64,000 nucleotides of DNA, taken from Lobosporangium transversale (lineage: Eukaryota). The stretch's first letter is position 1; every line of letters starts with the position of its first letter. Position numbers and translations under genes: made by a program. The DNA lies in assembly GCF_002105155.1 (NCBI RefSeq), contig NW_019028982.1, positions 1,178,001 to 1,242,000 on the forward strand. The letters are read 5' to 3'. Positions 8,442 to 47,205 of the stretch are shown one piece after another. The notes under the pieces are model-generated. The model was given only the letters and a program-made list of their open reading frames with translations, had not been told where the DNA came from and searched no databases.

Positions 8442-9602
8442 GCAGTAAGTGCAATGGAAGTTTAGCAGATGTTTCTTTCAAGGTACACTCTGGTCTCGCT
8501 TTTTTGCACATCGTGTCAAAAAGTGGATTTTATATTTGTTCTGGAGAGGAGGGAGACAAGCAAAATAATTAGCCAATAGACCGCGTCATTTAGCTCTTTT
8601 AAAATAATATTTTAAATTGAATTGAATCTAGCCAATGAGCATCGCGGAATATAAAACCCACTTTTTTGACATGATGTGCAAAGAGTGAGACTGTGAGGGT
8701 ATTAAGGACGGCTTCTGAGGACTTACCCGCAACGTTATTTTTGACTTATAAATTCCTATTGACAGTTTCGATGACTACCAGTTTGGTAGCTTCTTCAATA
8801 GTACGCGCCTTATCTGTAACTCTCTTTGCAGCCTTTTGCTCTGCGCTAACATGGACGATCTTTTCTTCAGCTTTATGCAACTCCTGGCTATGAGATGGAG
8901 GCGAGAGCGTGGCCTCAACCGTTTGGTTTCATCCCTAACGAACATTTAGTGCCGTCCGGTCTCACTCTCGTTCCTCACTTTAGGCTAGGTTGCTAGCAAG
9001 GACGCAGAGAGAAGCTGACTGAGATAGTAAGCAAGCTGACCGGCATCACCCAACTATGCATTTGGAACTAGTAGGCTACAACTGATGACCAAATGTGCTT
9101 TACAATGAATTGTTTCGCAGGAAGTTGTAGTTGTGGTACTTCTAGCAGCCTATTCATCAAAATGTAAATAATAGCGTTAAAGACTCTCCTTTTGAGGCAA
9201 TCGCTGCTGTTCTTTGAGCAGCTGAGTAGTGTTGAGCCGAAAGCCATTGCTTTACTTCATAGATATACCCCTATTCTTCAGTCACTTTGACACCTCTTTG
9301 AGCATCATTTGAGCACCTGCTTGTTAAAACTGCCAAGTAATTTTTTTTTTTATTTTTTTACCTAGCAGTGCTTAAAGAAATATGCGAGAGAGATGAGCTC
9401 AATATTACTGTCCACTGAAGACTACATTCTGGTTTAATTAAATGCAACAAATACTCTATGTAGTTTCAATATGATAAATTAAACGACAATATACCAATGC
9501 CGATAATGATGACTATAACAAGAATGATAGTAGCGACAATAGCAATAGTGTACGCCGCTCAGTGTGTGCTTGAGGTTGGTATATTATGAGGCAGTAAAGC
9601 CC

Positions 9603-12600
9603 TCATTGACGCAGATGGTGAGTTGTAAATATCCGCAAACATTGCTCCAGCTCCTCTTTACGCAGAGGTTTACTGATGTAGTCATTCATGCCTGCTGCAA
9701 TACACTTTTCTCGATCACCCGGCATCACACATGCTGTCATCGCAATGATGTAAGGTCGATCCGATGTACCACCAGATAAATGCTTGCGGATGTATACTGA
9801 AGCATCCAAGCCATTCATCTTGGGCATCCATATATCCATGAATATGAGATCATAGGGGACGAAATGCTTCTGACCATCATTACTGTCAGCAACAGGATTA
9901 TCACCTGTCGCCCCGGAAGCCTCGGAGCCGGGATTAGCGCTGATGTCCAAGTGTGATAATGGCATTGCTGGTGATGGAATTGTCGTTGTTGCTTGTATGG
10001 CTGTTTGTTCTGTATCTGCAGGAGCCAAAGATAAAGACCTGTCTTCTGCGTCACCATCTGATAAGCCACTAATACCAGAATCCATGTTAGTTGTATCAGA
10101 TTGGTCCCCTCTTCTTTCCAGAAAGCGCATCTGAGCTGACTTCTTTTCGATCAGCTCAACGGCCTCTTGTCCATTGTTGGCCTCATCTGGCTTTACGCCC
10201 AGCCGCGCGAGCATCTTGGAGACTACCTTTAGGTTTACGGGGTTATCGTCCACTACCAGCACCCGAACCTTAGCCATCTTGCGCGCTGTCGAAGACAAGG
10301 CGGCTGCCGCAGCCGCCAACGATGGCGATGCGTATCCCGTAGAGCTAGGTGTATCTATTGAGGACCTGCCGCCAGCATTTCGTTTAGATGCGGCTCTGGC
10401 TTTTTGCAGTGACAATCTCTTAGCCATGGGAACCTCTATTCCTTCACCGAGACGAGACTGAGGTTCGGGCCGTGGCTGCTGGTACGGAAGCTTCATATCC
10501 GATCCCATCCCTGAGCCAGCTCTGGGCCTTACTTCTCGAAAGTTGGGTACACTCTGTTCTTTAGGTGGCATAATCGATATCATGGATTTCTCCGTTCCCA
10601 TCATCGACTTGACCAGCTTCTCCTCTGGCGGTACTTGTACCATATCTACAGTAGCAGGAGTAGGAACCAAACCAGACACAAATGCATTCTCATTTGCCGG
10701 CTCTTTTGTAATAGGAACAGGAGAAAGAGGTGATATGGACACTGGCACTGGTTGAATGGCGCTATTGAACAACGTCAATACAGAAGTAGAGTCGTCCATC
10801 GGAGCCAGCTCTTCTACATCCAGCTCCATATTCATTGGATCTTCTGTGAGCGCCTGCAGGACTTTAGAGTGTCGGATTGGCTTTGTAAAGTAAATTGGAG
10901 CAGCAAAAACGCCTTTCAGCCGAGCAGGACCTTGGACAGCAGAAATGTCTTGTGTTGGCGTAGTGGACTCGTTGTCGCTACTACTGAAATAACAAGCCTT
11001 GTTCAGAGATGCAGCAGGCGATGGAACAGCTGCGGAGAGATGGTCAATGCTGCTAATGCTCTGCTCGTAAAAAGTAGTCTGAGTACCGGGCGTCAACAAA
11101 TTACCGGCTCCAGCAGTGGTGGTAAATGTTGGTCTGATACCCAGTTGGTTCGAAGTCGAAGGCGGAGCCCTGTCCAGTGTTAGGGACGACGTTGATGAGC
11201 CAGAATGATCTCTGTACTCTGGTGCATACGGGTTAGAGAAACAACCCTGGCTGTCATGCTGGGGACGACAAATAACTCCAGGCTCTTCATTTGTATCGCT
11301 ATTCGAGATTCGTTCGCCACTCCACCGAGATGCATCTCGACGAGCATGGCCATGATATGAGGTTGATGCCGACGCAGCAGCCTTGATGTCTCTCATATCT
11401 TTGAAGATAATTACAGGGACAATAGAAGGTGGAGCAAGACTCTCTTCAATGTCAAGATATTGGGATGATCCTCTGGCTGCAGTTGCTCGGATGGCATCCA
11501 AAAGATTCTCGGGTTTCTTGTAGAGGAATCCATTAAGATCTGTTTCTAGAATCAAAGCCTCCATCTTATCTTGGATCCTCTCCTGGACACCAGATTCAGA
11601 GCTCTTTTCCAAGAACGGCATGATTTCATTACTCCTTAATATTTTGACACTGTGCATGTTCCAAGCATCTGTTCGCTTTTTCCAGGCCTTGCGACCCATA
11701 TCAGAATCATCTACCACCACGAGTTTCATATCTGTTAACTTTGAGAGCTTAAACTGCTCTTCGTACGTCTGACATCCAACGGGACTATCAAGGATAATGT
11801 TAAAGTAGAAGGTGGAGCCGACATTGGGAACGCTGTCGACCCACATACTGCCGCCCATCATCTCGCTGAGCCGTTTACTAATTGCGAGACCCAGACCTGT
11901 GCCACCGTATTCTCGTGTTGTACTCTCATCGACTTGCGAAAAACTTGTGAATAGCTTATCAAATCGATCCGATGGGATGCCGACACCTGTATCCTTCACA
12001 GAAAAAAGCAATTTGACAGGCTTGGTTTGAAGGGGAGTAAGTGAGCCCGAGCCGGTACGACCTATTACTGGTGTGCCATCCGACAGGACCACACCATCAG
12101 CTCTATTGGCTGCTGGGAGCTCTGTAGATAATGGGGATACCGAGTCGCCATTAACAGCTTGATCGGTTTGATTGATGGATCCCTGAGAAGACAGTAATTG
12201 GCTCATTGTAGGATTTGCGAGCGTATTGACTCTCGGCACTTTTAGAGAATCGGATGTCAGAGTCGGTCTACTGATATCCCCAAGACGGGTAGGCCGAGGA
12301 GGCTCCGTCTTGACGTCTTGTTCATCTTCAAACCTGACTTCAGGCAGGTTCTCAACCGTGACAGTGACATGGATCGACCCCTCCTTTGTGAACTTGACTG
12401 CATTGCTCATCAGGTTCAACAGAATTTGGCGGATACGTGTGACATCGCCCATAATCTCCACAGGGCACTTTCTGTCAATCTCGTACACCAGGCTCAGTTT
12501 CTTTGCTATAGCTTGCGAGCTTATCAGGTTCACAGCAGATTCCATGACGAAGCTCAAGTCCAAGAGTCGCCTTTCCAGCTTCAATTTACCGGACTCGATC

Positions 12601-13352
12601 TTTGAAAAATCCAGGATATCGTCAATAACCGTCATCAGTTGGTTCCCGGAGGACTCTATCGTTTCTGCACATTCTGCCAATTCGGGATTTAACTTGGAGT
12701 CCAACAATATCCTAGACATGCCAATGACGGCGTTCATCGGGGTGCTGTTTCACCATATAAAAACAATGGTATACAAGAGATTAGAGGACTAAGGTACTCG
12801 ATCTCCACCAAAAGGTATAAAAAAGAAGGGAAGTGACATACCGAATTTCATGTGACATGTTGGCCAAAAAGTTTGACTTCGCGGTTGCTGCTGCTTCAGC
12901 GCCTTCTTTGGCTTTTTGAAGATCATCCAATAGCCGATGCGTCCTGGCACGCTCCTCCTCTAACTCCATGGTCCTCATTTGAAGGTTCCTAGTCCTGTCA
13001 TGTACGAGTTCCTCCATGTCGTTACCATACTTCTCGAGCATTGCTGCCATACTACTGATAAAGTCACTGGATTTATGGGGGTTGATATCATTGATTCTGG
13101 CGAGGATTGCGGTAAAATGGGGCCGACTCGTGGGTTCCTTTGATATACACAAGCGAATCAACGCATTGATTTGCTCAATATTTTCACGATCTTCCGCAGA
13201 ATATATTGAATTCTCAGTGTTGATCAGAGTGGGTCGAAGATCGTGCCCCTTTACAAGCTTGATTATGCCAAGGATGTCCGCCTGTTCTTGATCATGGTAA
13301 GGCAGGCGGCGTGTTAAAATTTCGTTGAATATGATTCCAGCACTGGGGGATG

Positions 13353-13385
<33 letters not shown>

Positions 13386-16300
13386 AGCTGCAACTACTTA
13401 TTAATAATAACCAAGGTAAAAGCGTGAGATTAGAGCTTCGAAATACAACTTGCCTGTAAATATCACCCCTCTGACTGCCGATGACTTCATAGTCACCATT
13501 CTTTCCCAAATTAAGACATTCAGGAGCAGTCCACAATAAAGGGATCATATCAACTGTATTTTCGAAACCGCTATGCTCGGGACCATCTGAGATACCACTG
13601 GCGTAGGAGGCGCTAGCATGTGGAGTACTAGAGCTATAATAACTACCGCTGGTATGCCTAGGCCTGCTTCCTAAAGACAACGAGGCTCCAGAGGCTCCAG
13701 CCGCCTCTTCCTCTCCAACTAATCTATTTCCGTTGAAGTCTCCGTTCTCCACATAATTACGCATATTCTTACTTCTCCGAAAGGGCTCGTGGTTGAGGTC
13801 AAAGATCCCCTGCTGCTGGGGGTTTGAATGATCAGACTGCGATGGATGAGATACATCAGATGGCCACACACGGCCAGCGCTTTTCTGCTTTAGCATCTTT
13901 TCACTCAGAAGGCTGGGCTGTGGAGTAGGCGTGTCCAATTGCGACCTGTAGAGTCCATCCAACCCATAGCCTGCGATCTTAAGCTCCCAGCGAGATGAGA
14001 TCAAACAGTTCATGCTTGTTAAACGCCCATGAAACATAATCTTGGACATATGAAGGAACTCCATACCCCGACACAGATCCTGCATGAATGAAAACTTGAA
14101 GAGCCAAGTGAATTTATGGTCCATATTTGCCAATACAGCTGCCAATGTACCTTTTGGAACAAGTTCTGTTGTCGTGGAAAATTTTGAAAAACATTTTCAA
14201 TTTCCAAGTAAAATAAAAATAAAGCGTATTACGCCTAATAATTTACAGAAGTGCACAATGAAGCTGCCATACCTGTGACAATGCAGATGTTGGGTTGTGC
14301 AAGGCAGACGCCAATAAACTCGACAAGCTTAGGATGACGAAGTTCTCGCATATTGAAGATCTCTTTACGAAGCTCTGAGGTCACTGTGACTTTCTTGGAT
14401 CCAATCTTCTTGATATAAACAGGCATACTGCGCCAGGTACCAACTGCAGATGACCCACGGCTCATGACTAAGGAAAATTGGCTGGGGTTGTTTCCTTGAA
14501 GAGACTTTGTATTCCTACTGGAAAAATTGAGGAACCATTCCAATACGGTTAGATTGTGCTTTTTTTCTTTTTCTTTCTATGGTTATGACTTCCCCGTAGC
14601 CCGAACTTACGATGAGCCAGAGGGTGCGCTAAAGCTAGCAACTTGGTCAGAACTAATATGGCTCCCTGCACTATCATTCCCCAGATCATTACTTAGTCGC
14701 GGACCAAACTCAGCGGATGACCGTCTTTTGAGATAAGCTGCAAGCGTAGACGCATTACCAACTGTGACGCCAGGAAGGATAATACCATTCATATTATTAG
14801 GGCCACTCATGCGTGGAAGGCCATAAGTTCTATCTGTCTCACCTCCGATGCCACTATAAAGCAACTTTGCCAGATCCAGTTGCCAAGAGTCATCATTAAG
14901 TTTCTTCCCGTTGATGTATTTTTTCCTTTTATACCAGCAGAAGACCAGCAACGCCGCTAGTACCAAGCCCGACAAGAGAGGAATAAGGATAGCCATCAAA
15001 AGTTTAGACAGACTCACTATTGCAAGATTGTTGTGATCAAAGAGGTCGATTAAAAAAAAAAAAAAAAAAAAAAAAAAGTCAGAACAACTAATCTTTAACA
15101 AGAGACATCAATACTCTATACTCTGAAATCCATATCTGATAGCCTTACTCCCTGAACTGCTTCCACAGTTGCCATCGCTGCAGTCAACACAGCTTACTTG
15201 ACCAACACCTGTAGTGGTCAGACCAGAAGGGCAAGAGGAGCATTTGAGTGCATCCGAATAGTTGCTATATGTTCCGGCAGAACAGCGTGTACACATGGAC
15301 CGAACTTTTACATGACCATCAGGATCCACGCAGAGCACTGTATCTGTATCCTCACTTGAAAAGTCTGTGCTCGTATATGGTGACAAATTCATGGGGATCC
15401 CTTGAAAAGCACCCGCAGACCCTTCCATGCTCTCCGGAATGCTTCGACCGGACGAGTAATATGTACCGGGCTCACAAACGTAGTTTATGGGCACAGGTCC
15501 GGTAGCAAGGAACTGGTTAAAGACCTTGGCTCGATTAGGATACATCATTCTGATTGAAAGACTGAGAACTGAATGAAACCCCTGGATGTATTGCTGTGGA
15601 TTCAGGATGCCAGTGATATACTGATTATTTGCCAAAGAATGGATTGCCTTCGTAGATGTCCCCATCACGAATACTCCAGGAGAACTTGAATCCGGTGCTG
15701 CCTTGGAAAGCAAAGGTAACCCCTCCCTCAATGTAGCGCTCTCCGTCAGAGGTGATAAGCCAATAGAGGCCGCCGAACCACGAATCTTCTTAAGATTAGG
15801 GTAGATCTTGGCTACCACTTCATAAAGTGGTATGGATGTGCAGAGGATCGAGTCAAATGGTAGCGTGGCTTGTTCCGAAAAAGCATTGATAATGCGTTGC
15901 TCGTCCGGCGATAACGTAGACTCGTTATCCTGTCTTTTGTACCAGTGCTCATTATGAAATGCGGCGCGCTCCTGAATTTCGCTGCTGTTAAACACCAAGT
16001 CGCTGGCTTTCGCATCAATTTTCATCATCATGTCTTCCAACCTGCCAACTCTCGCCTCGCCGTATATTGTGGCTAGGAACTTGTGTAGCTGGATACAATG
16101 TCCTTCTTGCCACCATGGCCCATTTAACTCTATGAGACACAAAGGTATGCCAAAGCCGTTTTTCAGGATCTGAGATGAGAATGTCGAGCCAATGGCGGTA
16201 TCGCTAGGCCCGTGGAAAACAACTCTACTCGGTAAAGGCACCCAATTGTCCACTGTGCCTATACCCATGATAGGCATGTTCGGTCCCATCACGGTGTTGT

Positions 16301-18508
16301 TCAATAGCTCACTGTATTGCTCCTTATCAGCTAAGGACATGATGACGCCTTGAATGCCTTTATATGGGCCATACCGCGATTCAGCTAAATTACCAGTCGT
16401 CCCAGAACCAGCAGATAGTAGGGTATTCTGGACCCCTTCCAATTCCGGTACTGAAGTCGCTGAGATCGTGTTCCACCCAAACAATGTCGTCGCTTCGATA
16501 ATACCGCCCAAGGCCTCCTTCCAGCGTGTTTTCTCTAGTGAAATATTGCGGTTAAACACTACAGCTGTCTTGTTCTGCGCAATGAAGTCGAAGAGGTCTC
16601 CTGAATGATCTTGTGCATACTCAGCTTCGACATTGCTAGCGTCCAGCAGCGTTGGTCCCGTCCAAATTGTGTCTACCTGTAATCTTTGTTTCGATGAAAC
16701 CATAAGGAAAATTTCTAGAACAGGAATCGCTCCTTGAAGATACGGCGATTGGGAAGTGGCCGCAACAATGGTTCCTGATTTAACGTACTCTATCATATTC
16801 TCATTCAATTCGAATGTGCCTACCCATAACCCACCTGGCCTCCCAGGCACAGGATTGCCTGTTTTATTCAGCGAAATCTCCACAGCCAAGTCAACTGTGA
16901 GTGTTGACAGAGCGATAATTGAGTCAACGTTCGGATACTTTCCGAGATGACTCTTCACGGTTCGGAAGACTTGTTGACTATCGTTAGTGCGATTGACCAT
17001 TATAGTTCTATTAGAGAAAGAGTCGGTAAGATTCAATCCCCGAGCCCTAAAAGCCTTGAGGACTCCTGAACAGCGGTCGGCGAACGTTTGCACAAAAGGC
17101 ACAGCGCCAAGACAAACAAAACTTCGCGCTCCTACGGCATGTTCAAAACAAGTGGTCAGTCAGCAACCACAATAGATTGTACTTCTTTTGTAAAGGAGTC
17201 AAGCCTATAAATCTAATAGGAATACCTTTGTCAAGTAGTGCGTTTCCGATCAATTCTCCAGCAGCGACATTGTTCTGTAAGACGGAGAGGAATCCTTGCT
17301 GTCTGGCAGATTCCAGGCCTATATTCATGACTACAATTGGAAGTCCTGGACGCTGTCTCTGGACATCAATGACCGCGGCTGCAATGTCGGAGTTGGGGAT
17401 AGTGACAATTAACCCATCAATAGGCTCCTCGGAGGCTTTTCTGATTCGACTAGCCATAGTGTCAGTGTCGAAGACGCCATTCAGTGTCGTCCGCTGCCAA
17501 TCCAGCTGAATATCGGTGATTTTCGCTGCATCCCAAGCACCTGCATGAACTCTGTCCCAAAACGGAGTAATACCTAGTTAAAAATAATGGTCAAGGGTAT
17601 GATATAAAATGGTCCCTGAGCATGCAGTTATTGACAGGAGGCTTACAAGGATTGATAAAAGGATTGGAGTACAAACCATGATCGATTCCCAGCACTCGAA
17701 TAGGCCCATCTTTATATGATTCTGACTTCCGACCATTGAATCCAGTCATAGTTTTGGGATCGCAAAGAGGGAGATTGGAGATATTCATGGCTTTTGAATT
17801 GGACGTCAAGGCATTGTACTGGTACCCAGATGGAGAATCCATAGACCGCCGCCCAAGGCCATGATGTTGAAAAAATGGACGTATCCCTAATCCCGGTGGC
17901 TCCTGAACAGGGATCGAAGCGACAGCATGGAGCATTGAAAGTGGCAATAAAAACACCAGTAGCCAAGTGAGTATGGATAACAATGAAGAAGACTGAGAAG
18001 GTCTTTTCGAGCTTTTCCGAGTGAATTTAGGCGATCTGGAGAATGTGAGATATAACCTTTTCAAATACATAGCGCTATTAGCTCCTAAAAGCTTTCTATG
18101 GCTACTCTTTGGGTACTGCCGGCTTTGGCGAGTCTGGATCGAGTCCTTTGTATTGTTGATCTGGGATCTAAGATGGGGATGACACTGTTCAGACCGAGGT
18201 GTGCGAACCATAGCTACTGATTTCCGAGTTAAGGAGGATCTGAAGAATAAGTGCCGACTCCTTATTCGTATATGACTACTCTTGTACTTTGAGTGGGCTA
18301 TTCTGTCGGGGGTTGGCATCTGACTGAGACTGGTAGAGAAAACAGATACCAGCACAGAGTATAAAGATGGAGGATTGTGATGCCACTGACTGACGTTCAC
18401 AGACGACAGTGGTACTGCAATTTGGAAGGAGACACAGTGTCTGAACTGGGACTCACGTGGCCCCAGGTTATGAGTGATAGCTGTTGTGTGATGGACAAGG
18501 GATTCCAT
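9603..18508 (-). CDS. Transmembrane hybrid histidine kinase: tandem periplasmic-binding-protein ectodomains, Cys-rich repeat, TM, receptor-guanylyl-cyclase-like pseudokinase, coiled coil, HisKA, HATPase, receiver; ~2721 aa
   Basis: Exons 18508..17677, 17573..17226, 17131..15149, 15016..14611, 14514..14273, 14165..13454, 13342..12842, 12744..9603 (8166 nt, in frame; first donor could alternatively be at 17646 and the start could be later). H-box [17 protein letters not shown]-box [15 protein letters not shown]1 DTGVGI, G2 GGTGLGL, receiver VLVVDDN...IFMDIWMP...IIAMTA...[31 protein letters not shown] followed by KRKK. Confidence 0.9.
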
Positions 18509-19574
18509 ATGAATGATTGTTGTGAATCTGAAAATTAGGAGGCATGCAGGTGGTTAGTTGGACGATCAATGTTAATCCAAAAGTAGTTTCATTTTTGCGT
18601 TTGTGGCACGGTGAGATGTAAATGTGAATTCAAGCATATGCAGGATATGTCATCATAAAAAAAGGGGGAGTTTGAGCAGAAGAATCTTTTTAATATTACA
18701 TCGCATCGTTTCGACTACGGTGCGGACTGACGTTTTTTTTAAAAAAAAAAGTTCATTGAGCAACTGAACTAAAATGCTCCTTCCATGTGCGATATCTCCA
18801 CAATAGTCTAGTCTACGACATAGTTCATACTGTACTACATTTGTCGTGTACAGCATGCCAAGAGAATGAAAGAAAAAAAAAAGACAGGTACCATTTCATA
18901 AACATGGCCCCTGCAGCATGCTTAGCCTGCTTTCCACCAAATCGACAATCAGAAAAAAAAAATGCTGTGTTCCAAATACATCCTAAGCACACACCCAACT
19001 AGATCTCAGCGAGGAAGAGAAGACAAAGTGGAGTTGTTGAACGAGCAGGAAACCGCCTTCAAGAGCAGGATTTCCTCCATATTAACTTTTTCAACAAGTC
19101 TTTCTATACCCCTTTCAGGGAACTTTCAACTTTTTCATTAAAAGATTCCGAATTTAATCAAGCTCCGTCTCTGCCAGGTTAATTACATTCATAACCAATC
19201 TCACGACAACATCGATAGAGGAAGGATTATACAAGCGAGAAAAAAAAAAAAAAAAAAAAAAAAAGCGCAAGTCGGTAAAATTGTGTTTTTTAGAAGCGAC
19301 AGGATATTGCTGTTGGTGATGTGCATACGAAAAGAGGGAGGGGAATGACGATGTCCATGGTGCATGGATAGGGACAGGCGATGCTGTTCATGATAATGAG
19401 GTAGGGGCAACAAAATTGATAGATAAACGCGGCCTTACCAGCAGTGCTGATCGGGTTATCAAGAAACGCTATTTTCAAGGTTTATCGTAACCTGCCAATA
19501 GTTTGTTGTAGAACTTGAGCAGGATAGGTGTGTTACGCTGGCTCCAGAATTATAACCACATGAGAATGAGTTTT

Positions 19575-19760
19575 AATGAATGTGTTAATGAATGAATGAA
19601 TTAATGAATGAATAAATGAGTGAATGAATGAGTGAATGAATGAGTGAATGAATGAGTGAATGAATGAGTGAATGAATGAATGAATGAATGAATGAATGAA
19701 TGTTTTAATGTGTTTTAATGAAGGTATGAAGGTATAAAGATATGAAGGTATGAAGGTGTG
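19575..19760. repeat. (GAAT/GAGT)n microsatellite followed by (ATGAAGGT)n repeats
   Basis: Directly visible tandem arrays in the intergenic region between the divergent histidine kinase and CHO2 genes. Confidence 0.9.
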
Positions 19761-21376
19761 TGCATGTAATGCGGAAATACAGGCTGAATGGAACAAAGTA
19801 CAAGACAAAGTGAAAAAAAAAGAAATGGATACGCCACTCTACAGAGATGGCAGGAAGAAGACGATGATTGGCGGCGAAGTCAGAGACAACGGTGAAAGTG
19901 GAGATAGCAGGCAGACCACACGAAGGGTGCAACGAAGAAAAGTTGTCTTGGAAATATCTCCACTACTCAAAGCAAAAGATTGGTCCTCCGATCACTTTAA
20001 TCTTGCATTTCCATGTATCATTTATAAATGTCTCTATACCTTGTATGGTATTGTTGGTCAAAAATGGTTGATGTCATTTTGATAAAATTCTTATAAACCT
20101 TATTGAAATCTGTTTCCTCTTCCTTTTCTTTTCTTCCAAACGCATCCTTTCTCAAGTAATCTGGATATTACCAAGAATTAAAATAATTGGTCTCATCCGC
20201 ATTCGTAAAAATAAAAGCTCTGTTTGTGTTCGAATGGAAACAATCTTTCGCGGTTGTTACCCTTTTAAAATTCATCTAGGCCTTTGAAGACCCTGGAAAA
20301 ATGATTCTTAATGCATTGGACGATTCTTGTACGTCATGAGAACTTATAACCTTTGCTGTGCCATTCTTTGAATGGAATGCTTTCGCACTAGCGCGATTTA
20401 TACAAAGAATACAACGACACTCTACCCCCCTGACAGTCAATCAAAGATTCTATTCAGTTTAGTATTCTCATCAGTCATTAGAGCCCATCCAAGTGAAAGG
20501 AGTAAAGGAGTAACCGGTTGACTACTGATATACGAAAAATACTCCTTCTTCAACCCTCTCTTGCTTTCAACTTTGTATGGAATGAATTCACTAAAAAAAA
20601 AAAAATACGCAATCCGAAAATGAAATTATTGTAGCACGGCTCTCCAGCAATTTACATGTACATCCTTTGGAAGAGAAAAAAATCAATGGAGCTGTTGTCA
20701 GCAAAGCTGTTGTGTTTCCAAAAAAAAAAAAAAAAAAAAAAAAAAAAACGTGACTTAGCGCCACCAATTTGACATATGATAGTTGTTTGTTGGGGTGATC
20801 AACCTCTGAAAATCTTTTCCAACGGCTGATTGCACGCGAAACACTGTATACAGTGACATTTTTAGGTTGGAGTGGATCTCTTGGCAGCACGCGATTACTC
20901 GAGTAAAATCTTTAAAGATGGCGACAGAATAAGCATTGGCATAATGTTGTGCTATTAGAAGCAAATTAATCATCTTTTCCCATAAGCATGGCAAACATGT
21001 TTTACTTTGAAGTTTCTTCATGATTCAAAGTAGAAAATTCGTTCCATTTGTTTCCTTGTGTACCAGCTCTTGACCCGAAGAGCAACATAAACACGAGCTC
21101 AGGTACAATACAGAAACAGACACGAGCACGAGCTTAAGCACGGGTAGACCAGATTGGACCCCAACCAACTTTCTTGAGTCTACAGACACGCACGCTCTCG
21201 CCTTCTCTCTCTCTCTCCTCGCTTCTTCCTTCCTTCTTCCCTCTACTTTTCTCATCCCTACACTCTCTCACCTTCTACTCTTTGTTCTTGTCGCTCCCCA
21301 CATTCCTCATCTCTCCGTTTTGGGCGCTCTTTAAGACAATAGAAATTAAATATTAGAAGAGTGAGACTCTACAATC

Positions 21377-22525
21377 ATGGATTCTGAGCTCCGTAACAGG
21401 AAGGTCTCAACAACCCAGCTGGAGGTCAATGGCGTGTCCTCATCCAACAAGGTGCACGCTACCGCAGCAGTCCGATCAGGAACTCCTTCCATGACTGAAT
21501 CACCCGATCTCCATAATTCGCATGGCAGAGATTCGACCGATTCAGCTACTTCGGGTCAATCTCTATCAGAGTCCCAGAAGTTGAGCCTAGCCAGGGAACA
21601 GGAAGAGACTGCGTTTGGCAAAACTCCCAATGGCACAAGTATGAATCTCCAGTTGATCGACAATTTACTGTTGTTTACACCCACATTCAAAGATTGTTGT
21701 TCATTGTTGCTGATCCTCTCCTTTTTACAAATGCTATCGAACTACAGTTTTTCGCGTGCCTGTTACAAAGGACATGCTGAGCGAGATCTTTGATATGAGC
21801 AAGAAAAAGTCTGCTTTTGATCTCATCACCCTTGCCGTTATGGGTGTTCAGATTCTCATGTTCTTCACTCTACCCACATACATTAAACGTTGGCTGTTCC
21901 TGGCCCTCTTCTTATTCTGGAGAGCAGGATACAATGCGGGTTTGGGCTACTTGTTGAAACTTCAGAGCGAACGTAGAGCGTTGGTTGCTTGGGCTAAGGA
22001 ACAAGGCATTTTTGACAAAAAGCGTGGTGGTGGCTGGTATGAATGGCTCAAGCAAGAGCTCAGCTGCAAGATGGACTCGGACTACGATTTTGATGTAAAT
22101 AAATCTTCATGGTTGCTTGATCATTTGATCATTTATTCGAGGATGCATTCTCTTGAACTGATTTTTTTCACTCCATTTTGAACCCAATAGGCCGTACCTA
22201 TCGAATTCAACACATGGCTATTATACCGACAGCTTGTAGACCTAATCCTCATGAATGATTTCACTACCTATGTCTGCTTCGCTCTATCTTGGCTCACCTT
22301 CCCTGCCGGATCTGGCTTTTTTGGCCACGTATTGCGCTGGACCGCTGGGTTCATTCTTGTGTTCTTCAATATTTGGGTCAAGTTGGACGCACATCGTGTA
22401 GTCAAGGACTTTGCTTGGTGTAAGTTTACACCCTCTCCCTTCAATTTGCGGCCACGACAGTAACAGTAACGACAGTAGCATATGAAGCATCATGTATAAC
22501 CTTCTTCCTACGCTAATTGTGTATG

Positions 22526-22558
<33 letters not shown>

Positions 22559-25132
22559 TTGGGGTGACTTTTTCTTTCTGATTGAACAATCATTAACGTT
22601 TGATGGAGTCTTTGAGATGGCACCCCACCCAATGTACTCGGTTGGATATGCTGGTTACTACGGTATCTCCCTCATGATGGCCTCATACATGGTGCTCTTT
22701 GTTTCACTCTTTGCCCATGCCGCCCAATTTGCGTTCCTCACTTTGGTCGAGAACCCTCGTAAGTGTTTATTTTATGCTACCCTGTCTGATTAGCTTGGCA
22801 ATTTTGCAAAAAAAAAAAAAAAAAAAAAAAAAGTGCTCATATTTACTCTTGTCCTCACTTAGACATTGATAAGACCTACAATCCTCCTCAGATCCCTAAA
22901 AAGCGTGTCCCCACTACCACTGAGGCGTCATTGGGACTATCTACTGGTCAGAGCTCTGTTGTTGCCTCCCCTTCCGACCATGTTGCACCCATTGATCAAG
23001 CAGCAACACTTGTCCCTTGCGGATCGAAGGACATGTACAACACCTACTTTAGACGGGATCTCATTGTTTTCAAGAACTTTGATATTTTCCGTTCAAACGA
23101 TATTTTCGTGGCGCTTATTATCTTTTATGCTACCATTGTGCCGCTGCTGATTTCCAACACAGGACCTCGCTTCTTGACATTCATGATGGTTATTCAGGCC
23201 TTGATGTGGCGTGTTTTCCATTCCTATGTACTTGGTGCTGTCTTGAAGAGGCAGAGTGACAGCAAATTTTATACGAAGCATTTTATCAAGCACGGAGGCA
23301 CAGTACAGGATGCATTCCAAAGCTGGAAAAGCATTTTCAACTTGTCCAACTCGATGACATACGCTACCTTTTTCTTGGCTGCTTTCAAAATGTATTCAAT
23401 CCCGGACGATTGGACCTATGGTACCGTCCTACTTCGTCATGTCCTTGGGCTTGCATTGATTGCTCTCCATATTTGGGCCTCAGTCTCTGTCTTTGAGGTA
23501 CTGGGTGACTTTGGTTGGTTTTATGGTGATTTCTTTCTGGAAGACTCGTCCAGCGGTCTGTTCTACACTGGGATCTATAGGTAATGTTTTGTCCCTATTT
23601 AATGTTACGAAGCAACAGGCATGTGCACTCACAATATTACGTTAAAACTCAGCATCCATCCTACATCTGATCTATATAATCAACTATGAATAGATTTGTC
23701 AACAACCCTGAGAAAGTCATGGGCCATGCTGCATTCTGGGGTATGACCTTGATTTGCAATAGCTGGTCTATTTTTATCTTGGCCATGTTCTCCCAGGTCT
23801 CTAACTTCTTGTTCTTACACTATGTTGAGTCCCCTCACATGCGTAAGATTTACGGAAATAAGATTCGTAAAGATGCTGGTGTTGTCAAGACTGTAAAAGC
23901 TGCTAAAATCTTCCCCAAGAAAATGAAGGATGAAGTCAGCAAGATCCGCGAGAAGCTGGAGGAGACACCCGAAATTAAGGATGTACTTCAGAAGACACGG
24001 GTTGTCTCTGAGAAGGCACAAGAGATTGTCGAAGGTACACGTGATGACTTGAACGGCTTGGTCCAAAGTGTTGCTCCTCGTATACAAGAGATGGTCTCCA
24101 ATTCCAAGGCTCTACTTGAGAGCTCCAGAGAAAAATTAATTGTAGCGTAAGTCTTCAAACACGGCACCGAACTGAGGTTTAAATATGAATGATCAGCCGC
24201 TATTCTTTATTAACGCTAACTTTTATAATAGTCGAACTTGGGATGACATTGGAGTGTATGACAAGTCACAATATTCAGTAAAGATCATCAATGACGTTGC
24301 TCCGGCCGTCAATGCAGAGGGCATTCCCACCTACAGCCTTGGCCAAAAACTGACTGTAGAGTGGACAGCGCCTTTGAACCATGGTACTAAGGATTGGATC
24401 GGTATTTACAAGGTCTCAAGCAACAACTCCAAGGAAGTGACGTCTGTGGCTTCCAAGGGCCGCTATCTGTATGTTAACCGTGATTTGGGACTTGGAGAGG
24501 CCGAAGAAGGCGTGAATGATCATGCTGGCAAAGGCGATGGTGAGATTATTGAAGAGGAGGTTGTTTGGATTGAAGAAAAGGAGCTGTGTCGTGGCCGTGT
24601 TGTTTTCCTGGGCGACAAACTTCCATGGTTCCAAGGCACTTTCGAATTCAGATACCATCACCATGGACGATACAACGTTATGGCTTACACAACACCATTT
24701 GCCATTGCATGTAAGCAGGGTTAACTTCATATCCTTATGCTCATCCAAAAAAAAAAAAAAAAAAAAAAAAAAAACTTACAATTCGTTTTTTTATATCTTC
24801 TTAATATTGCAGTGGAAAACTACCAGGACGAGAAGGAGCACACTGTGGCCTCGATTAGCCATGCGCTCTTGCCATATGTCCAACGTTGTTTCAATTCTGA
24901 TGAAGAAACAATGCCAACCTCCGTGGATGAGCGCTTCATCATGATTAACGAATCAATCGCACAAAGGATTGTCAGGGGTATTCAGCTCATGTATGGAATC
25001 GAATTTACTTGGGAAGTAGTCGCAGTCGATATGAGCTGTCTTCATCTTGCTCTCCGTATCTTCACAGCTCGTCGAGCTCTGGCACCTTTCTCCTCTATTG
25101 ATTCGCATATTTCACTGTCGGATGAGTCTTAG
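21377..25132 (+). CDS. CHO2: Phosphatidylethanolamine N-methyltransferase, ~1002 aa
   Basis: Exons 21377..21638, 21748..22094, 22191..22419, 22558..22758, 22863..23580, 23694..24146, 24232..24710, 24813..25132 (3009 nt). Motifs [89 protein letters not shown]...FEFRYHH. Confidence 0.95.
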
Positions 25133-26427: not shown

Positions 26428-28441
26428 CTAAACGGGCTCAGCTGGAGCCAGGGGAGCATTAGGCACACACCAAAATCGGACACGATTATCATTACCACCA
26501 CTAACGATAGCGTTCTCAGCCGGAGAGGCTGAAATGGAGCGAATGACACCCTCTTGACCAAAATAGCGCTTCAACAAGGTGCCTGTGCGAGAGTCCCAGC
26601 AGACGATCGTGTTATTGGACTCATCCGAGCTAAAAACAAAATCCTCATTGTAGGAGAAGACAGTAGATTGTTTAACTGCCTTTTGAGCGGCGCCTTGGAA
26701 TCCATGGATAAGTTTACCGGAGCCTAAATCCCATAATTTGCTTACAGAATCCCAACCGCCTGATAAAATGTATTTGCCATTCTTGGAGATCGTGGCTGTG
26801 GTGACACCTTTACCTGAATGTGCATTTTCGATCGTCCGTACAACTTTTCCTGCAATAGCATCCCAAACTTTAATGGAACCGTCTTGGGATGCAGTGATGA
26901 ATACAGACCCCGTAGACGCATATTCGATATGATTGATACCTCCACGATGTGGACCCTGCTGTTGCTGTTGAGCCGCAATGTCGACAGAAGATGTTGAGGC
27001 TGAGGATGGTGTATGTTGTGGAGGGCCTGTGAAGGCTCGGGGAGTGAAGCATTGAAGGGTTTTGACATCAAAAATCCGGACAGTCTCGGCTTCCGAACCA
27101 ACCAATAGAAAATCGCCAGACGGGTGGAATGAGATTGAGTTGATGGGATGCGAGTCCTATGCGTTATTAGAAAGAAAAGAGGAGTGAGGATGCTATAAGA
27201 GGAAGGAAATATTTAAGCTTGGTCGCTTTTAACCTATGAAAGGTAGTATGTGAAGTAAGTTTGCCTTGGTTTCATGAAAATTCTTACCTGAAGGTATCGA
27301 AAGGATCGCTTCACAGAAGGTTTTGAAATATCATACAGCTTAACAACGGTGTCTGAGCTTGCTGCAAGCACCAAGCCATTAGGGTGAAAATCAACATCTG
27401 TCACAGGCTAATAAAAGGAAGAAAAAAAAAAAAAAAAAAAAAAAGGCGTCGTTATTTTTAAGATGATCATAAAGATCTACGAGGAAATGTAGAAAGTATT
27501 TGATTAGAAGCCTAGTAATCTTACAGTCTCATGATCATAAAGTGTGCGGATGACCGGATGTACATCATCACTAGCTTGTTTCATTTTATTCACATCCACA
27601 ATTTTGAGTGAGGAATCTGCAGAACCTGAGGCTGCGTATCGTCCGTCTCGGGTGAACGCTGTACAAGTCACTGCCTCCTTGTGTGTTGTTGTATGAACCA
27701 TATTGAGCGTGGGCGGATAAAGTGGCGATGATTTCGGATCGGTATCCAAGTTTAACCGTGTAAGGTTTGATCCTACTTCAAGGTCGTCATCTTCATCCAT
27801 AAATTGAGATGCCTCCACTTTGAAGTAGTCTGTGGGCTCAATTTCGACAGATTCCTCTAGATCAATTAAAGTCCCCAAAAAAAAATATATATATATATAT
27901 AAATATAAACATGCACTTTATTGCCACTGATAATTCAAAGATACTGGATCAATCTCTAACGAAAGATCTTACCGCGGGCAATGTACAGCATTTCACTGAG
28001 CTGAGAACTAGGCTTGATAGATGCTGATGTATGTGTTTGTTCAGCTACCATGAGTGCCAACTAAATAGAACAAAGGCCGTTCACCCATATGCGTTAGGAT
28101 AAGGTGATTATTTTCGGTCAATCCAAACATGCCTTTGAATACTCTATTATCCGTTTCTTAGAGTGTAATTCCTTTCCCCGTACCTGTGCATAGCCATATT
28201 CAGCAAGTTGGCTATAAGTCAAAAATATGAACATAACAGTCGTATAGAATGCATTGATTAATACACAATTGAAACACCAGGATCAAAGTTTGAATCCAGT
28301 GTTTATTTACACATACGTCTTTTTCTTCCACCAGGCCATGAGCATGGGCAACCAAGACACAACATGAACATGTTACAAATGTTACCTCACGATCAGAGGA
28401 ATGACCTCCTCTTGCCGCATCTGATTAGGTTCTGAAGGCAT
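26428..28441 (-). CDS. CSTF1: Cleavage stimulation factor 50 kDa subunit (N-terminal dimerisation domain plus WD40 repeats), ~450 aa
   Basis: Exons 28441..28386, 28211..28184, 28060..27973, 27856..27525, 27407..27288, 27156..26428 (1353 nt). N-terminal LIVSQLAEYGY; HKEAVTCTAFTRDGRYAASGSADSSLKI...HPVIRTLYDH matches the CstF-50 pattern; further WD repeats TASQDGSIKVWD and SGGWDSVSKLWD. Confidence 0.9.
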
Positions 28442-28593: not shown

Positions 28594-28956
28594 TGTTGGT
28601 TTTAGTTTTAGTCACGTGTAGAGGGTTCGCCACCAACTATTTAACGAGCAACAGCTCAGGAAAATCTGGCTCCTTGTTCCTTATTTTTACACAAGAGCCA
28701 TTTGAGTACTGACTGTTCTCGTCCAGGTAAAGAGCCCTCACAACGTTCGTCGTTAGTAGCCATAGATCATTAAAGGTTCCTTATTTTTACACAAGAGCCA
28801 TTTGAGTACTGACTGTTCTCGTCCAGTCTTCGAGTAGTGTGTGTGTGTTCTTTTATTGTGTTAGAATTATTTATCTATCAGCTGGAAGTGACCGGCTTCA
28901 TAATCCACCAAAACGACCTAAATCTCCTACCACATCTGCCCCTAAATTTTGCAACA
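28594..28956 (+). repeat. 5' LTR
   Basis: TGTTGG...GCAACA; identical by eye to 35176..35538. Contains TATTTAA at 28638, a 51-bp direct repeat (28676..28726 and 28776..28826), ATTAAA at 28769 and a GT-rich tract at ~28837..28854. Confidence 0.97.
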
Positions 28957-28963
28957 ATATTTC

Positions 28964-28981
28964 TGGTGATCTACGCAGGGG
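28964..28981 (+). other. tRNA primer-binding site
   Basis: TGGTGATCTACGCAGGGG, 7 nt after the 5' LTR. Its complement reads as a tRNA 3' end (T-stem CCTGC, acceptor strand GTAGATC, discriminator A, CCA). The tRNA isotype is not determined. Confidence 0.75.
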
Positions 28982-28993
28982 GTGGCAGCTACA

Positions 28994-31900
28994 ATGTCTT
29001 CCAATTTATCGATTCTTCTTACCATGATCCCGAAGTGGCCGTCGGCAGAGGCTGAGGGTCTAACCGCCGCGACATGGATCAGCGATTTTGGAGGTGTTAT
29101 CGAAGGAGAAACCCTGAGCAACAAGTTGATGTTCGTCGAGAGGCAGGCGACAGGCAAGATCCAACGCTGGATCAGGCGCTGGAGGATGACAAACAAGACG
29201 AATGGTGCCTGGAGCCAGTTCGTCAGCGATTTCATCATGGAGGCCTCTACCCCTAGAAGCCAGGATGTCACCCTGGACGAGTTGCATTCTATTAAGCAAG
29301 GAGAAGATGAGACGACAGCCAACTATGTACAACGAATGAAACTTACCATGGAACTCCTCGACCCAGAGTCTGGTTGCGACGCACAGCCGTACAAGATCCC
29401 AACAGCCACCGAGCGTCTACTGGCGTACAGATTTTGCAAGGGTTTGAGGCAAGACCATCCTTTCAAGGTCAAGAACAAAGAAGCGCCTGCGACCTTGAAG
29501 GAAACCTTCGAATCAGTGACACAATTGGTTGAAGGAAATCGTTGGGGCATTGACACCACTGAGAGCCGTGTCATAGCTCGCAGCAACGCTGAGCATGCTG
29601 CACCAATCGAGACGAATGTTCTGCTTGGATCGACCCTAGTGCCGAGGACGCACTACTCTGGCTTCCTAGCGGACTTCAAAGACGACAAAGAGAAAGTTAA
29701 TCAATTAAGCGTAGACGAATTAACAGACATGTTCGGAGCCTGGACCCTTGCTGCCGAGGAGCGAACTCCGGAGGCGCGAATCGCTCAGACTATCTCAAGA
29801 ATGAGCCCGGCTGTAGCGAGGCGAGTGTTTGGTTCCTCTGAATTGGCCAAGCATATTAGAGTGGAGGCTAGACCTAATGCCGTGCTCCAACCCGCCGAAG
29901 TTCGAAGTCAGCAGGCTATCCCTATGGCCCGTAGAACCTGCCATAAATGTAATCAAGAGGGGCACCTCTTGTCGTTCTGCCCATTGGTGGAATGCTTCCG
30001 ATGTGGCGAGCGAGGCCATACTTCGAAGGTTTGCACTAAGGAACAAGGAAGCCCCGCCACAGGCGCCAATAGCGTCCCATTGGCCACTCAAACTAACTCC
30101 TCGCTAAGAGTGCAAAGTTTAGAAATCTCCGCCACTAATGTCGCCCAATCATTTATCACGACTAAGCCACAGCGATTAAATTCGACAGGTGCCCAGCGAC
30201 GTCGCAGTGAGAGGACAGGCACTCCTGCAGGTCCATCGTCTCAACGAAGAGAGGAAACGAGAGGCACTACTCCACCTGTCCGAGGAATGCAGTGGGAGGC
30301 TGAGGCATCCACTAGTAGTGCGCAACCTTCTGGGGACCCCCACTTCCAGACAGTGACTTTTGATGACAGAGCGGTCGACGGGCGAGAGAATAATGTTGCA
30401 GAAGCTCCAAATGCGACGCCAAAGCGTACCAGGAAGCGCGTCATTCCTGATCCAGTGTTCGTTGATGCGGTCGAAGGATTGAATTTTGATTTGGCCACTC
30501 ACTCCAAGTACCGTGGAAAGATGGCAGTGCAACTCAAGGCAGCTGTTACCGAGGCCTGGGCCCGCCATGCCCCTCCAAGAAGAAGCAAGCCTAAGAGGAG
30601 TCAGTCAGCAATAGCTATGGCCAGGAACGTTCAAGGTGGCAAGGGTGATGTCACGACCGTCACCGCCTTGGGACGAGACTTCAACAACGCCGTTATTGAT
30701 CCAGGCAATGACCATACTATGATGGGCCTACATGTGGCAAACGCACTCGGACTGAAGTTAGAGCCTGCTACTCGTGCGGTGCTATTAGCCCATGGGTCCT
30801 TCCAGAAGCTTGCGGGCCGCACAAGACCTATCGATATTTATGTGTCCGGGATCCCCTTGAGAATGTCGATGGGAGTGATCGACTGTAAGGGCACATATGA
30901 CTTCCTCCTTGGCGATGACTGGCTCAAGGCGCTGAAAGCCAAGGCTGATTGGAGCAACGGTATCGTGTACTACGTGGAGAGTGAGGGAAGGACTATCACC
31001 CTTGGTGGCGGTCTAAATGTTCGCGCCTCAACCCCTCAGCCTACGACATCAACGTACTTGTCTGATGAGAGCGATGAGTATGATGATGAGTACGACGACT
31101 ATGAGGATGACGAATCAATCTACGAGACGGAAGAATCCGATGCTGATGCAGGGTACAGAGCCTTGAGAGTGAAGACAATAGAGGTTGGTGACCCGGATCT
31201 GCAGGCGATGACCGCAAGAGTGTTCTCTAGCAAGATACAGTGCGAGAATGACGATGCTCGCGTAAAAAGGCAGCCGTTCGCGGTTGACGGAGTCAACGTG
31301 GACATCAACCCAAATTTGTCCAATGAGCAATACGGACAGATTGTGGAGTTACTTGAAAAGAATAAGGACAGGCTGACTACCAACCTTGAGGACCTCGAAG
31401 TGACGTCTATTTTAGAACATGAGATCAACATTCAACCAGGCGCCAAGCCAGTGTACGTAGGATGGTGCAAACGGTACTCGCCGAAGGAGCTTGACTTCCT
31501 TAAGAAGAGTGTTGATGATGAGCTTAAGGCAGGAAAAATCATAGAGATGGAGAGCGAGTGGTGCGCGCCGCTGAGTCTTGCTCCTAAGAAAGACGGATCC
31601 TTGCGCAAGTGCGTCGCATACATAGGCCTAAATAAGGTTACCGAAAGGGAGAGCTGGCCACTGCCAAACATCGAGGAAATACTTGACAACTTAGGCGGAT
31701 TCGAGTACTACAGTAGCCTGGACGGATTTCAAGGTTATTACGTGATTGGCATCAAAAAAGAGCATGTCAAGTATCTTGGCTTCCGTACGCCTTTTGGGAC
31801 GTTTGCATACAAGGTAATGCCATTTGGGCTCAAGAACGCGCCACATACCTTCAGTCGCTTCGTTAGAAAAGTGTACTCAGACCTTATCGGAAGAGTGCTT

Positions 31901-34537: not shown

Positions 34538-34811
34538 GGGCAACCACCTCAGGAGAAGCAGAAGAAGGGGGAGTGACAACGACGGCAGGAGCAGGAACAA
34601 CGGCAGGAGTAGAAGAAGAAGCAGAAGCAGGAGGAGTGGTAGGGGTCGAAGGAGTGATAGGAGAGTGAGAAGTGACAGCAGGACGCGACTCTGGAGACGT
34701 GCCCAAAGACAGACTTAAGCTCTTGTCTGAAGAGGGAAGCATTGTCTTGGTGGAAGTGGTTGGTCTTGGGCAAGGAGGAACCTCGTCTTTCTTAATAACA
34801 GTGCGGGCCAT
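34095..34811 (-). CDS. Putative antisense accessory ORF of the retrotransposon, 238 aa
   Basis: ATG GCC CGC at 34811, TAG at 34095. S/P/T-rich N-terminal half, KRSAEAFQDIDEPIEKRVR (bipartite NLS-like), and a helical C-terminus. Overlaps 443 nt of the pol 3' end. Confidence 0.6.
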   Translation of the reverse strand: MARTVIKKDEVPPCPRPTTSTKTMLPSSDKSLSLSLGTSPESRPAVTSHSPITPSTPTTPPASASSSTPAVVPAPAVVVTPPSSASPEVVALTDHEVGPSSVSPFAAEKSSPESPQSQTVPPPARELNKRSAEAFQDIDEPIEKRVRAKYLLHGEVAFSRGLADQSRLRERLRSRKVQLAPEERHEIELDLSLATRDVEIGLECLRLLCPPAPDPDLAGVIDLAREVVRCRRSGDSSQ

Positions 34812-34874
34812 GATGACGATGAAGTAGTTCAAGCAGGGCAAGGAGGAAGGAGTTGCGAATGAAAAAAAAAAAAG

Positions 34875-34911
<37 letters not shown>

Positions 34912-35167
34912 AATGGAGGAATGAACCAACATTTATGTCCATGGCAACATCATCATGTGGAAGTAATGGCGTGATCACGGATCAAAATGATTGGCCGAAG
35001 AAAGAAAATTTTCCTTGGTCGATGCCAAGGCGAACCAAAGGGTGACAAGAACAATGATGCAATGACCAAAATGCGGGGTAGCAAGAGTCAAGGTGGTAGA
35101 AGCGCAAACAGCACAATGAGTTTCTTTCTTTTTGAGCTGCGGCTTGGCGGAGCCGAACTTCGCAGCT

Positions 35168-35175
35168 GGTGGGGG
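35168..35175 (+). other. Short polypurine tract (GGTGGGGG)
   Basis: Immediately precedes the 3' LTR TG; preceded by the inverted repeat AGCTGCG (35135..35141) / CGCAGCT (35161..35167). Confidence 0.6.
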
Positions 35176-35538
35176 TGTTGGTTTTAGTTTTAGTCACGTG
35201 TAGAGGGTTCGCCACCAACTATTTAACGAGCAACAGCTCAGGAAAATCTGGCTCCTTGTTCCTTATTTTTACACAAGAGCCATTTGAGTACTGACTGTTC
35301 TCGTCCAGGTAAAGAGCCCTCACAACGTTCGTCGTTAGTAGCCATAGATCATTAAAGGTTCCTTATTTTTACACAAGAGCCATTTGAGTACTGACTGTTC
35401 TCGTCCAGTCTTCGAGTAGTGTGTGTGTGTTCTTTTATTGTGTTAGAATTATTTATCTATCAGCTGGAAGTGACCGGCTTCATAATCCACCAAAACGACC
35501 TAAATCTCCTACCACATCTGCCCCTAAATTTTGCAACA
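35176..35538 (+). repeat. 3' LTR
   Basis: 363 bp; identical by eye to the 5' LTR. Confidence 0.97.
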
Positions 35539-46852: not shown

Positions 46853-47205
46853 ACTATTGTGTGATATAGTTGATTGACCAATGTTAAAACGAAATTCATA
46901 AAAAGAAAAGCTGATCGATCTCTTCTATTAAACTCAAGGATGAGGAACTTGCAGCAAAGCCCAGGGTGATAAAATATACACAGCCTTGTTGCTCATATCT
47001 ATCCATCAAGCAGCATCAAGATTCTGCTTGAAAGCTACGTTTCCCTACTCTCTTCTGTTTCTGATGAAGCAAGAATAATACGGGAACGGTATATAACTTA
47101 CATGGTGGTGAGGCTACGCTAGCAATGGAATTGGGATCAGAAATGGAGTTCTGCTTGAAATCTTGAAATTGTTCGTTCGTAAGACAAAGAGAGAAAATGA
47201 ATCTC

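Follow-up and report, generated by a model that had tools for sequence, protein, structure and literature searches.

A fungal group XVI hybrid histidine kinase whose core resembles that of receptor guanylyl cyclases

Introduction

Receptor guanylyl cyclases (rGCs) such as NPR1/GC-A and GC-C consist of a signal peptide, a type I ectodomain of the ANF_receptor family, a single transmembrane (TM) helix, a pseudokinase with an HGxL motif, and a linker and helix that precede a class III cyclase domain. We describe here a gene of the fungus Lobosporangium transversale whose product shares this plan up to the helix, but with an ectodomain of another family, and there continues into a hybrid histidine kinase (HK). 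The gene lies on the minus strand, at 9603-18508 of a stretch of 64,000 nucleotides (nt) that was analysed as a whole and is called the window below (assembly GCF_002105155.1, contig NW_019028982.1, positions 1,178,001 to 1,242,000). Papers are cited by PMC identifier, in each case for the part of the text that was available. The kinase-homology domain acts as a regulator in rGCs (PMC12493192), and the signalling helix (S-helix) acts as a switch in rGCs and in Sln1p (PMC1592074); the latter paper reports a Ser/Thr kinase domain before an S-helix for animal rGCs only. In fungi, the RGC kinase group was without a representative in 30 proteomes (PMC2838846), and typical receptor-kinase architectures other than hybrid HKs are described as lacking (PMC6733946).

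The closest described fungal systems are two groups of hybrid HKs. One of them, group XVI (MS-HKII), was reportedly defined by Defosse et al. in 2015. The rule for classifying fungal HKs is given in PMC4965123, and PMC6324907 names group XVI, which it confines to Mucoromycotina and seems to depict as S/TKr-H-A(-R), S/TKr being a Ser/Thr-kinase-related domain. MeHHK11/MelonHK11 and MeHHK12/MelonHK12 of Mortierella elongata are members (PMC5285503, Text S1; PMC6324907). The other is group X, with S/TKr plus GAF as its canonical N-terminus (PMC6324907). The available parts of the published group XVI texts give no function, pseudokinase status, Neocallimastigomycota relative or ectodomain family, and we found no text that links the group to rGCs or describes its ectodomain, the figures and Defosse et al. 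2015 lying outside the search.

Results and Discussion

One spliced transcript encodes the predicted receptor

The coding frame comprises eight exons and is stop-free once spliced. A single spliced contig of 8,433 nt spans all of them with 0 mismatches and 0 gaps, aligning over 9564-18528 as eight pieces. It comes from X1, the only run that covers the region; that X1 is RNA is our guess from the spliced contig, and it may derive from the window's own strain. Six splice joints are listed with CT..AC ends, and the seventh, at the GC-AG intron 6 (13343..13453, minus strand, from contig and sequence), is bridged by the consecutive contig positions 4751/4752. Intron 1 measures 103 nt with its donor at 17676; the 73-nt intron 1 (donor 17646) of a sequence-only model was ruled out by the contig. 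A 205-nt loose end of the contig matched a ninth, untranslated exon (19439..19644, minus strand), which is separated by a 911-nt GT-AG intron (19438-18528) from coding exon 1 (17677..18527, minus strand). The first in-frame ATG of coding exon 1, at 18508, is the putative start; a later Met is possible. The rebuilt gene model equals the contig in length (8,433 nt) and encodes 2,722 amino acids (aa). The 5' untranslated exon holds ATTC-type repeats and a three-codon upstream open reading frame (ORF). A further X1 contig, of low depth (7.9), places 9359 and 18733, which flank the gene, just 9 letters apart, and is probably a low-complexity artefact.

Exon 7 alone (13342-12842) holds the kinase C-lobe, the signalling helix and the HisKA H-box. 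The fusion is therefore independent of splicing, and the two halves are not two genes. An earlier note, made from the letters of the window, had proposed an rGC-like receptor with an HK as its output. Every motif that it quoted was recovered from the minus strand, in the order given and within a single spliced frame free of stops, and the single X1 contig bore out its 8-exon transcript with kinase and HK in one gene. Proteins of Mortierella, Podila and Gamsiella are 53-61% identical to the window protein over long stretches, which makes a place of its organism in the Mortierellaceae likely. The gene is a real, expressed and conserved chimeric receptor.

The protein is a hybrid histidine kinase of group XVI type

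The protein reads in the order signal peptide, two sugar-binding-type periplasmic domains (PBP1 and PBP2), Cys-rich segment, TM helix, pseudokinase, signalling helix, HisKA, HATPase and receiver, all encoded on the minus strand. Pfam matches above cutoff on the exon ORFs were PK_Tyr_Ser-Thr, HisKA, HATPase_c and Response_reg. Peripla_BP_4 fell under its cutoff in both of its exon halves and exceeded it in intact orthologues. Guanylate_cyc had no Pfam match in any of the eight exon ORFs, HisKA following the helix in the same exon; GAF likewise had no Pfam match in the exon ORFs.

Hydropathy predicts an N-terminal hydrophobic segment, signal peptide or anchor (aa 176-197; 17918..17983), which has a dibasic site downstream of it (aa 220-221), and a TM helix at aa 1060-1082 (14934..15002). 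Among 16 N-termini compared, six Mucorales orthologues have a short signal-like N-terminal segment; several Mortierellaceae gene models start later and are without it. The signal-like start in the Mucorales favours a single-pass topology, and the single-pass form proposed earlier is upheld by a signal peptide plus one TM helix in full-length orthologues.

The output half has every residue expected of a hybrid HK. HisKA/DHp (12588..12882, exons 7-8, Pfam) carries the phospho-acceptor H1673 at 12852-12850, and HATPase_c (11796..12440, Pfam) has N, G1 and G2 boxes and is split by an insertion of ~120 aa. The C-terminal receiver (aa 2503-2716; 9603..10265, Pfam) contains an insertion of ~100 aa, D2646 and K2701, with the stop codon at 9605-9603. 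Between them, a degenerate receiver-like segment was read by eye from aa 2016 (11500..11726, end approximate), at a place where the orthologue P0007 has a weak Response_reg match.

On its sequence, the protein is a fungal hybrid HK of group XVI; having no cyclase and a different ectodomain, it falls outside the rGC family. An S/TKr-type domain precedes HisKA without a GAF match in Pfam, and a comparison by eye matched the 400 displayed N-terminal residues of MeHHK11 to the N-terminal region of the window protein and to P0276. Those of MeHHK12 match P0007, of the paralogue type. P0276 and P0007 both carry the kinase-HK order, and the two M. elongata proteins share with the window protein the N-terminal sensor region, this order and a Mucoromycota range. 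Hence the architecture, which the earlier note did not recognise among the standard Dikarya groups, is the catalogued group XVI/MS-HKII and is not new as an HK group. Group X hybrid kinases also carry a eukaryotic-kinase-related domain N-terminal to the hybrid HK; in contrast to them, the window protein has an ectodomain and a TM helix, lacks the S/TKr plus GAF N-terminus, and has its kinase domain abutting the helix.

The kinase domain is a pseudokinase with rGC affinity

The domain spans aa 1212 to ~1595 (exons 5-7; 13114..14453) and was delimited by profiles, trees and motifs. When exon 7 was compared with the PDB, NPR1 was the only match for 3/3 sequences. The orthologue P0006 gave 126.8 bits with NPR1 and 59 with LIMK1, the next kinase, and a family profile scored NPR1 at 208, GC-C at 132.5 and BRAF at 92.6. 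A profile search returned 66 matches, made up of 27 Mucoromycota proteins, 33 rGC-type proteins and 6 other kinases; HisKA was carried by 24 of the 27 fungal matches and a cyclase family by none. HisKA was also present in 8 of 10 matches from a separate protein search. Among the best 150 representatives, local profiles found an HK in 14, a cyclase in 89 (a few of these being weak matches in multi-kinase proteins) and neither in 47. NCBI gives two Mucor circinelloides orthologues the name 'RGC/RGC protein kinase'; automatic kinase classification had therefore already caught the rGC affinity.

Two kinase-core trees, of 224 and 223 columns, were built with the helix and the insertion left out and with 15 and 16 outgroup kinases. 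These were TKL, JAK and Rhizophagus kinases drawn from similarity searches, and 11 near-redundant rows were dropped between the trees. Fungal and cyclase-linked domains grouped at 100/99 against the outgroups, and the fungal domains formed one clade (97/90 and 99/95). A placement of the fungal domains with Rhizophagus TKL kinases was rejected (p-AU 0.0007). In these trees, which were without group X kinases, the domain thus falls with rGC kinase-homology domains rather than with the TKL kinases sampled. Kinase domain and helix are very probably homologous to the rGC kinase-homology region.

As in rGCs, the kinase-homology domain lacks the catalytic Asp and is followed directly by linker and helix. 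HGRL replaces HRD and AGYG replaces DFG, with K1226 and E1242 retained, and an insertion of ~140 aa occupies aa 1342-1480. The catalytic Asp is missing in 51 of 53 fungal records (a redundant set), in which the DFG Asp position is Gly in 16, Asn in 9 and Asp in 28; the loss of the DFG Asp, found in the Mortierellaceae members, and an extra heptad in the fungal helix set these proteins apart from rGCs. Alternatively, the domain might be active as a Ser/Thr kinase, or have decayed to a spacer, and would then have no rGC-like regulatory role. Published drawings label it S/TKr (figure labels whose column order is lost), K1226 and E1242 are kept, and in 2 of the 53 records an Asp occupies the catalytic position. 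The window protein, on the other hand, lacks both the catalytic and the DFG Asp, and an alignment of six distant orthologues has 98 invariant columns out of 523, which speaks against a decayed spacer. We regard this alternative as very improbable. AlphaFold modelled the region from kinase to helix poorly (mean pLDDT 41.6), the helix alone reaching 78-91.

The signalling helix joins HisKA in register

The signalling helix was placed by sequence alignment at aa 1607-1647 (12928..13050) and contains the RT signature twice, at R1625 and R1632. The fungal helix aligns with rGC helices to their last conserved turn and then passes into an HK-type linker; in Mucoromycota it is one heptad longer than the rGC helix. 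The spacing from the RT signature to the phospho-accepting His was 6 mod 7 in 5/5 S-helix kinases found among 79 bacterial ORFs. The same spacing was seen in 39 of 40 distinct fungal junctions, with 48 residues in 36 and 62 residues in 3. The one junction that departs from it, in P0010, carries an insert of 17 residues, perhaps through an error in the gene model. The regular spacing is compatible with a coiled coil that runs unbroken from helix to DHp, which a functional switch would require. The direct passage of the helix into HisKA, another claim of the earlier note, was found as an in-register join within one exon. The S-helix histidine kinases Sln1p, BarA and TorS share a helix in heptad register with the DHp His; unlike them, the window protein has a eukaryotic pseudokinase upstream of the helix.

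The ectodomain is of the sugar-binding class

PBP1, a type I periplasmic sugar-binding domain recognised by profile matches, spans aa 269-557 (exons 1-3; 16641..17704). Its residues H277, F282, N361, Q377, R413, E501 and Q521 occupy family-conserved positions, and pocket-type residues are retained in most Mortierellaceae and Mucorales rows of the alignment. These residues we take to serve sugar binding, as in ribose-type binding proteins. The closest solved relative of PBP1 is 4ru1 (E 1e-18, alignment of ~250 residues), which PMC10747050 calls a verified myo-inositol transporter (its binding protein). In NCBIfam, each PBP1 exon half matched only the rhizopine-binding protein model (NF052284), far under its cutoff, and orthologues scored 105.9 and 125.8 bits, below the curated cutoff of 420. 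The myo-inositol/rhizopine ABC substrate-binding proteins thus share the ~250-residue alignment and the pocket-type residues, whereas the domain of the window protein is part of a fusion, occurs as a pair and scores far under the family cutoff. An inositol-like ligand of PBP1 is suggested by these matches as a tentative lead. An Atlas search with the ectodomain of an orthologue gave leads only (score 0.82).

PBP2, a second and divergent type I binding-protein domain (aa 581-943; 15483..16571), was delimited by hhalign, a predicted model and a fold search. It aligns with PBP1 (hhalign 95.8%) and has not retained the PBP1 pocket residues. Its model (pLDDT 67.9) found LacI/sugar-binding folds, including 4ru1, at Z 16-18. 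A Cys-rich juxtamembrane segment with an Ephrin_rec_like match in Pfam follows (aa 944-1049; 15165..15482).

ANF_receptor had no match in the window protein, Peripla_BP_4 and the rhizopine-binding model being found instead. The binding-protein fold that the earlier note ascribed to the ectodomain stands, since ANF-type and window ectodomains are both type I folds; its identity with the rGC ectodomain does not, as there are two tandem domains of sugar-binding class. The shared chassis is therefore the TM-pseudokinase-helix core only. Ectodomains of this kind have a precedent in gut-fungal GPCRs, which carry bacterial-type binding domains (PMC5168858).

The two ends of the protein are both bacterial in type. 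PBP1 matches bacterial sugar-binding proteins, and the HK region, for which BarA and TorS were the best NCBIfam models, is 47-57% identical to bacterial hybrid kinases. This would suit an origin by insertion, in which a bacterial-type binding protein-TM-hybrid HK took in an rGC-type pseudokinase and helix and no cyclase was replaced in the line of this gene. Bacterial hybrid sensors with a sugar-binding ectodomain exist, e.g. Bacteroides BT1754, and a sugar-type ectodomain joined to a cyclase occurred in 0 of the 150 top representatives. However, no domain resembling PBP1 or PBP2 turned up beside any of the 79 nearest bacterial HK ORFs, for which flanks of up to 1.5 kb were covered, and the fungal helix keeps an rGC-like segment past the RT signature before the HK linker begins. 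In addition, relatives of the Neocallimastigomycota type have the same TM-pseudokinase-helix-HK series with an ectodomain that matches neither PBP profile. We consider the insertion unlikely.

Relatives occur in fungi and in unicellular relatives of animals

The full domain order was found in Mortierella, Podila, Linnemannia, Actinomortierella and many Mucorales. Piromyces finnis and metagenome proteins have a TM-pseudokinase-helix-HK-receiver series with an unrelated ectodomain and a longer linker; in the proteins of this type P0274, P0275, P0148 and P0271, the ectodomain had no Pfam match. P. finnis hence encodes a hybrid HK of this type, contrary to its listing with 0 HKs in PMC6324907. One representative of 780 aa (P0134) has the pseudokinase and helix followed by a PBP2-like segment and no HK, possibly a scrambled gene model.

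Outside fungi, the ichthyosporean Chromosphaera perkinsii has two proteins in which an ANF ectodomain precedes TM, pseudokinase, helix and cyclase, and the filasterean Pigoraptor chileana has a protein with the same series behind a Bmp and Kelch ectodomain (rGC-type unicellular proteins P0169, P0177 and P0147). The core is therefore not limited to animals. A likeness by eye between the Neocallimastigomycota-type ectodomain and the Pigoraptor Bmp domain was not supported (BLAST E 32; hhalign 0.2%; the real sequence did no better than 500 shuffled ones). No cyclase-bearing sister was seen in fungi in three similarity searches. In the separate search that gave the 150 representatives, names were looked up for 10, and a fungal cyclase among the 89 cyclase-positive ones is possible.

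The proposal of the earlier note that an HK had replaced the cyclase remains plausible as an event, with its direction not rooted. We favour the cyclase, by a modest degree of confidence, as the ancestral output. Under the reverse polarity, pseudokinase-helix-HK would be ancestral in opisthokonts and the holozoan rGC would have arisen when a cyclase replaced the HK. The HK form does occur in two distant lineages, Mucoromycota and Piromyces, and the tree holds no rooting taxon with either form outside opisthokonts. On the other side stand the cyclase forms of the ichthyosporean, the filasterean and animals, and the differing linkers of the two fungal lineages (48 vs 62 residues), which may have had different HK donors. 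The reverse polarity appears decidedly unlikely.

Horizontal transfer from a holozoan might also have brought the pseudokinase-helix module to fungi. The fungal clade lies inside an unresolved fan of cyclase-linked domains, and the module was seen in only two fungal lineages in the searches made. Yet a position of the fungal domains as sister to all cyclase-linked domains was not rejected (p 0.35), and the branching among the fungal domains agrees with the species groups, Piromyces-type first and then Mortierellaceae plus Mucorales. To such a transfer we give little credence.

A proposed receptor and its history

We read the protein as a group XVI hybrid HK with a core homologous to the rGC pseudokinase and helix, probably acting as a dimeric single-pass receptor that would convey an outside sugar or cyclitol signal to a phosphorelay in place of cGMP. 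Ligand would close PBP1, an inositol-like compound being the best lead, and PBP2 would likely be structural. The change would cross the TM helix to the pseudokinase, likely an allosteric brake as in GC-A and GC-C. The signalling helix would then shift and switch DHp autophosphorylation at H1673, from where phosphate would move to D2646 and on to an HPt protein. We infer these dynamic steps from rGCs and S-helix kinases and attach them to the anatomy observed here.

Several points weigh against this reading. NPR1's own best PDB match ends mid-helix, and the spacing counts come from kin sequences rather than independent events. Guanylyl-cyclase-linked domains were not monophyletic with respect to the fungal ones (0% of bootstrap trees), although their monophyly was not rejected (p 0.35), and the trees were without group X S/TKr kinases and drew their outgroups from our own similarity searches. 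The ectodomain matches lie far under family cutoffs (106-126 bits vs 420) and do not fix ligand specificity. The HK may have been gained once or twice: in an HK tree that used 28 of the 79 bacterial ORFs and excluded three fungal rows, the Piromyces and Mucoromycota HK domains joined in 13% of bootstrap trees (p-AU 0.43). Finally, the lost DFG Asp and the long insertion may mean that rGC-like ATP regulation has been lost in the window protein.

As to history, the TM-pseudokinase-helix module of an opisthokont ancestor would have kept its cyclase in holozoans and taken an HK in fungi. On this account the rGC core could be an ancestral opisthokont transducer with an exchangeable output (the HK possibly gained twice), and the Mucoromycota form, with its inositol/sugar ectodomain, may sense plant- or bacterium-derived cyclitols; we advance this as a conjecture that falls somewhat short of even confidence.

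If the proposed receptor is correct, group XVI would be a ligand-binding cell-surface receptor of the receptor-kinase type in fungi. The anatomy of the family contradicts three statements: the lack of RGC representatives in PMC2838846, the restriction of an S-helix after a Ser/Thr kinase to animal rGCs in PMC1592074, and the lack of typical receptor-kinase architectures in PMC6733946. An uncharacterised HK group would gain a candidate ligand class and mechanism, and the proteins represent a domain swap made by nature, from which the control of an output by the rGC pseudokinase and helix could be studied with a simple phosphorelay read-out in yeast. The interest is limited by the prior cataloguing of the group and by the 'RGC/RGC protein kinase' tags of the two Mucor orthologues. 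The rGC link, the ectodomain, the Piromyces relative and the cyclase-bearing counterparts in unicellular animal relatives were not found in the literature searched.

Genomic neighbourhood

The long ORFs of the window included no recognisable HPt protein or response regulator. Ordinary neighbours are a phospholipid methyltransferase (21365-25132), a WD40 protein (26428-27917), an F-box protein (36419-37747), an SPX-ankyrin GDE1-like protein (38768-42071) and a Sec14-like protein (45986-46924). A Ty3/Gypsy-type long terminal repeat (LTR) retrotransposon lies at 28594-35475. A recent insertion is suggested by its two LTR stretches of 300 nt, which are 100% identical, and by its open gag-pol frame of 1,855 aa (28970-34537, plus strand). 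The 3' part of the element is overlapped by an antisense frame of 284 aa (34095-34949, minus strand). The minus strand at 54931-63486 holds acidic frames of low complexity and great length (one of 1,971 aa), in which W-G-acidic motifs recur.

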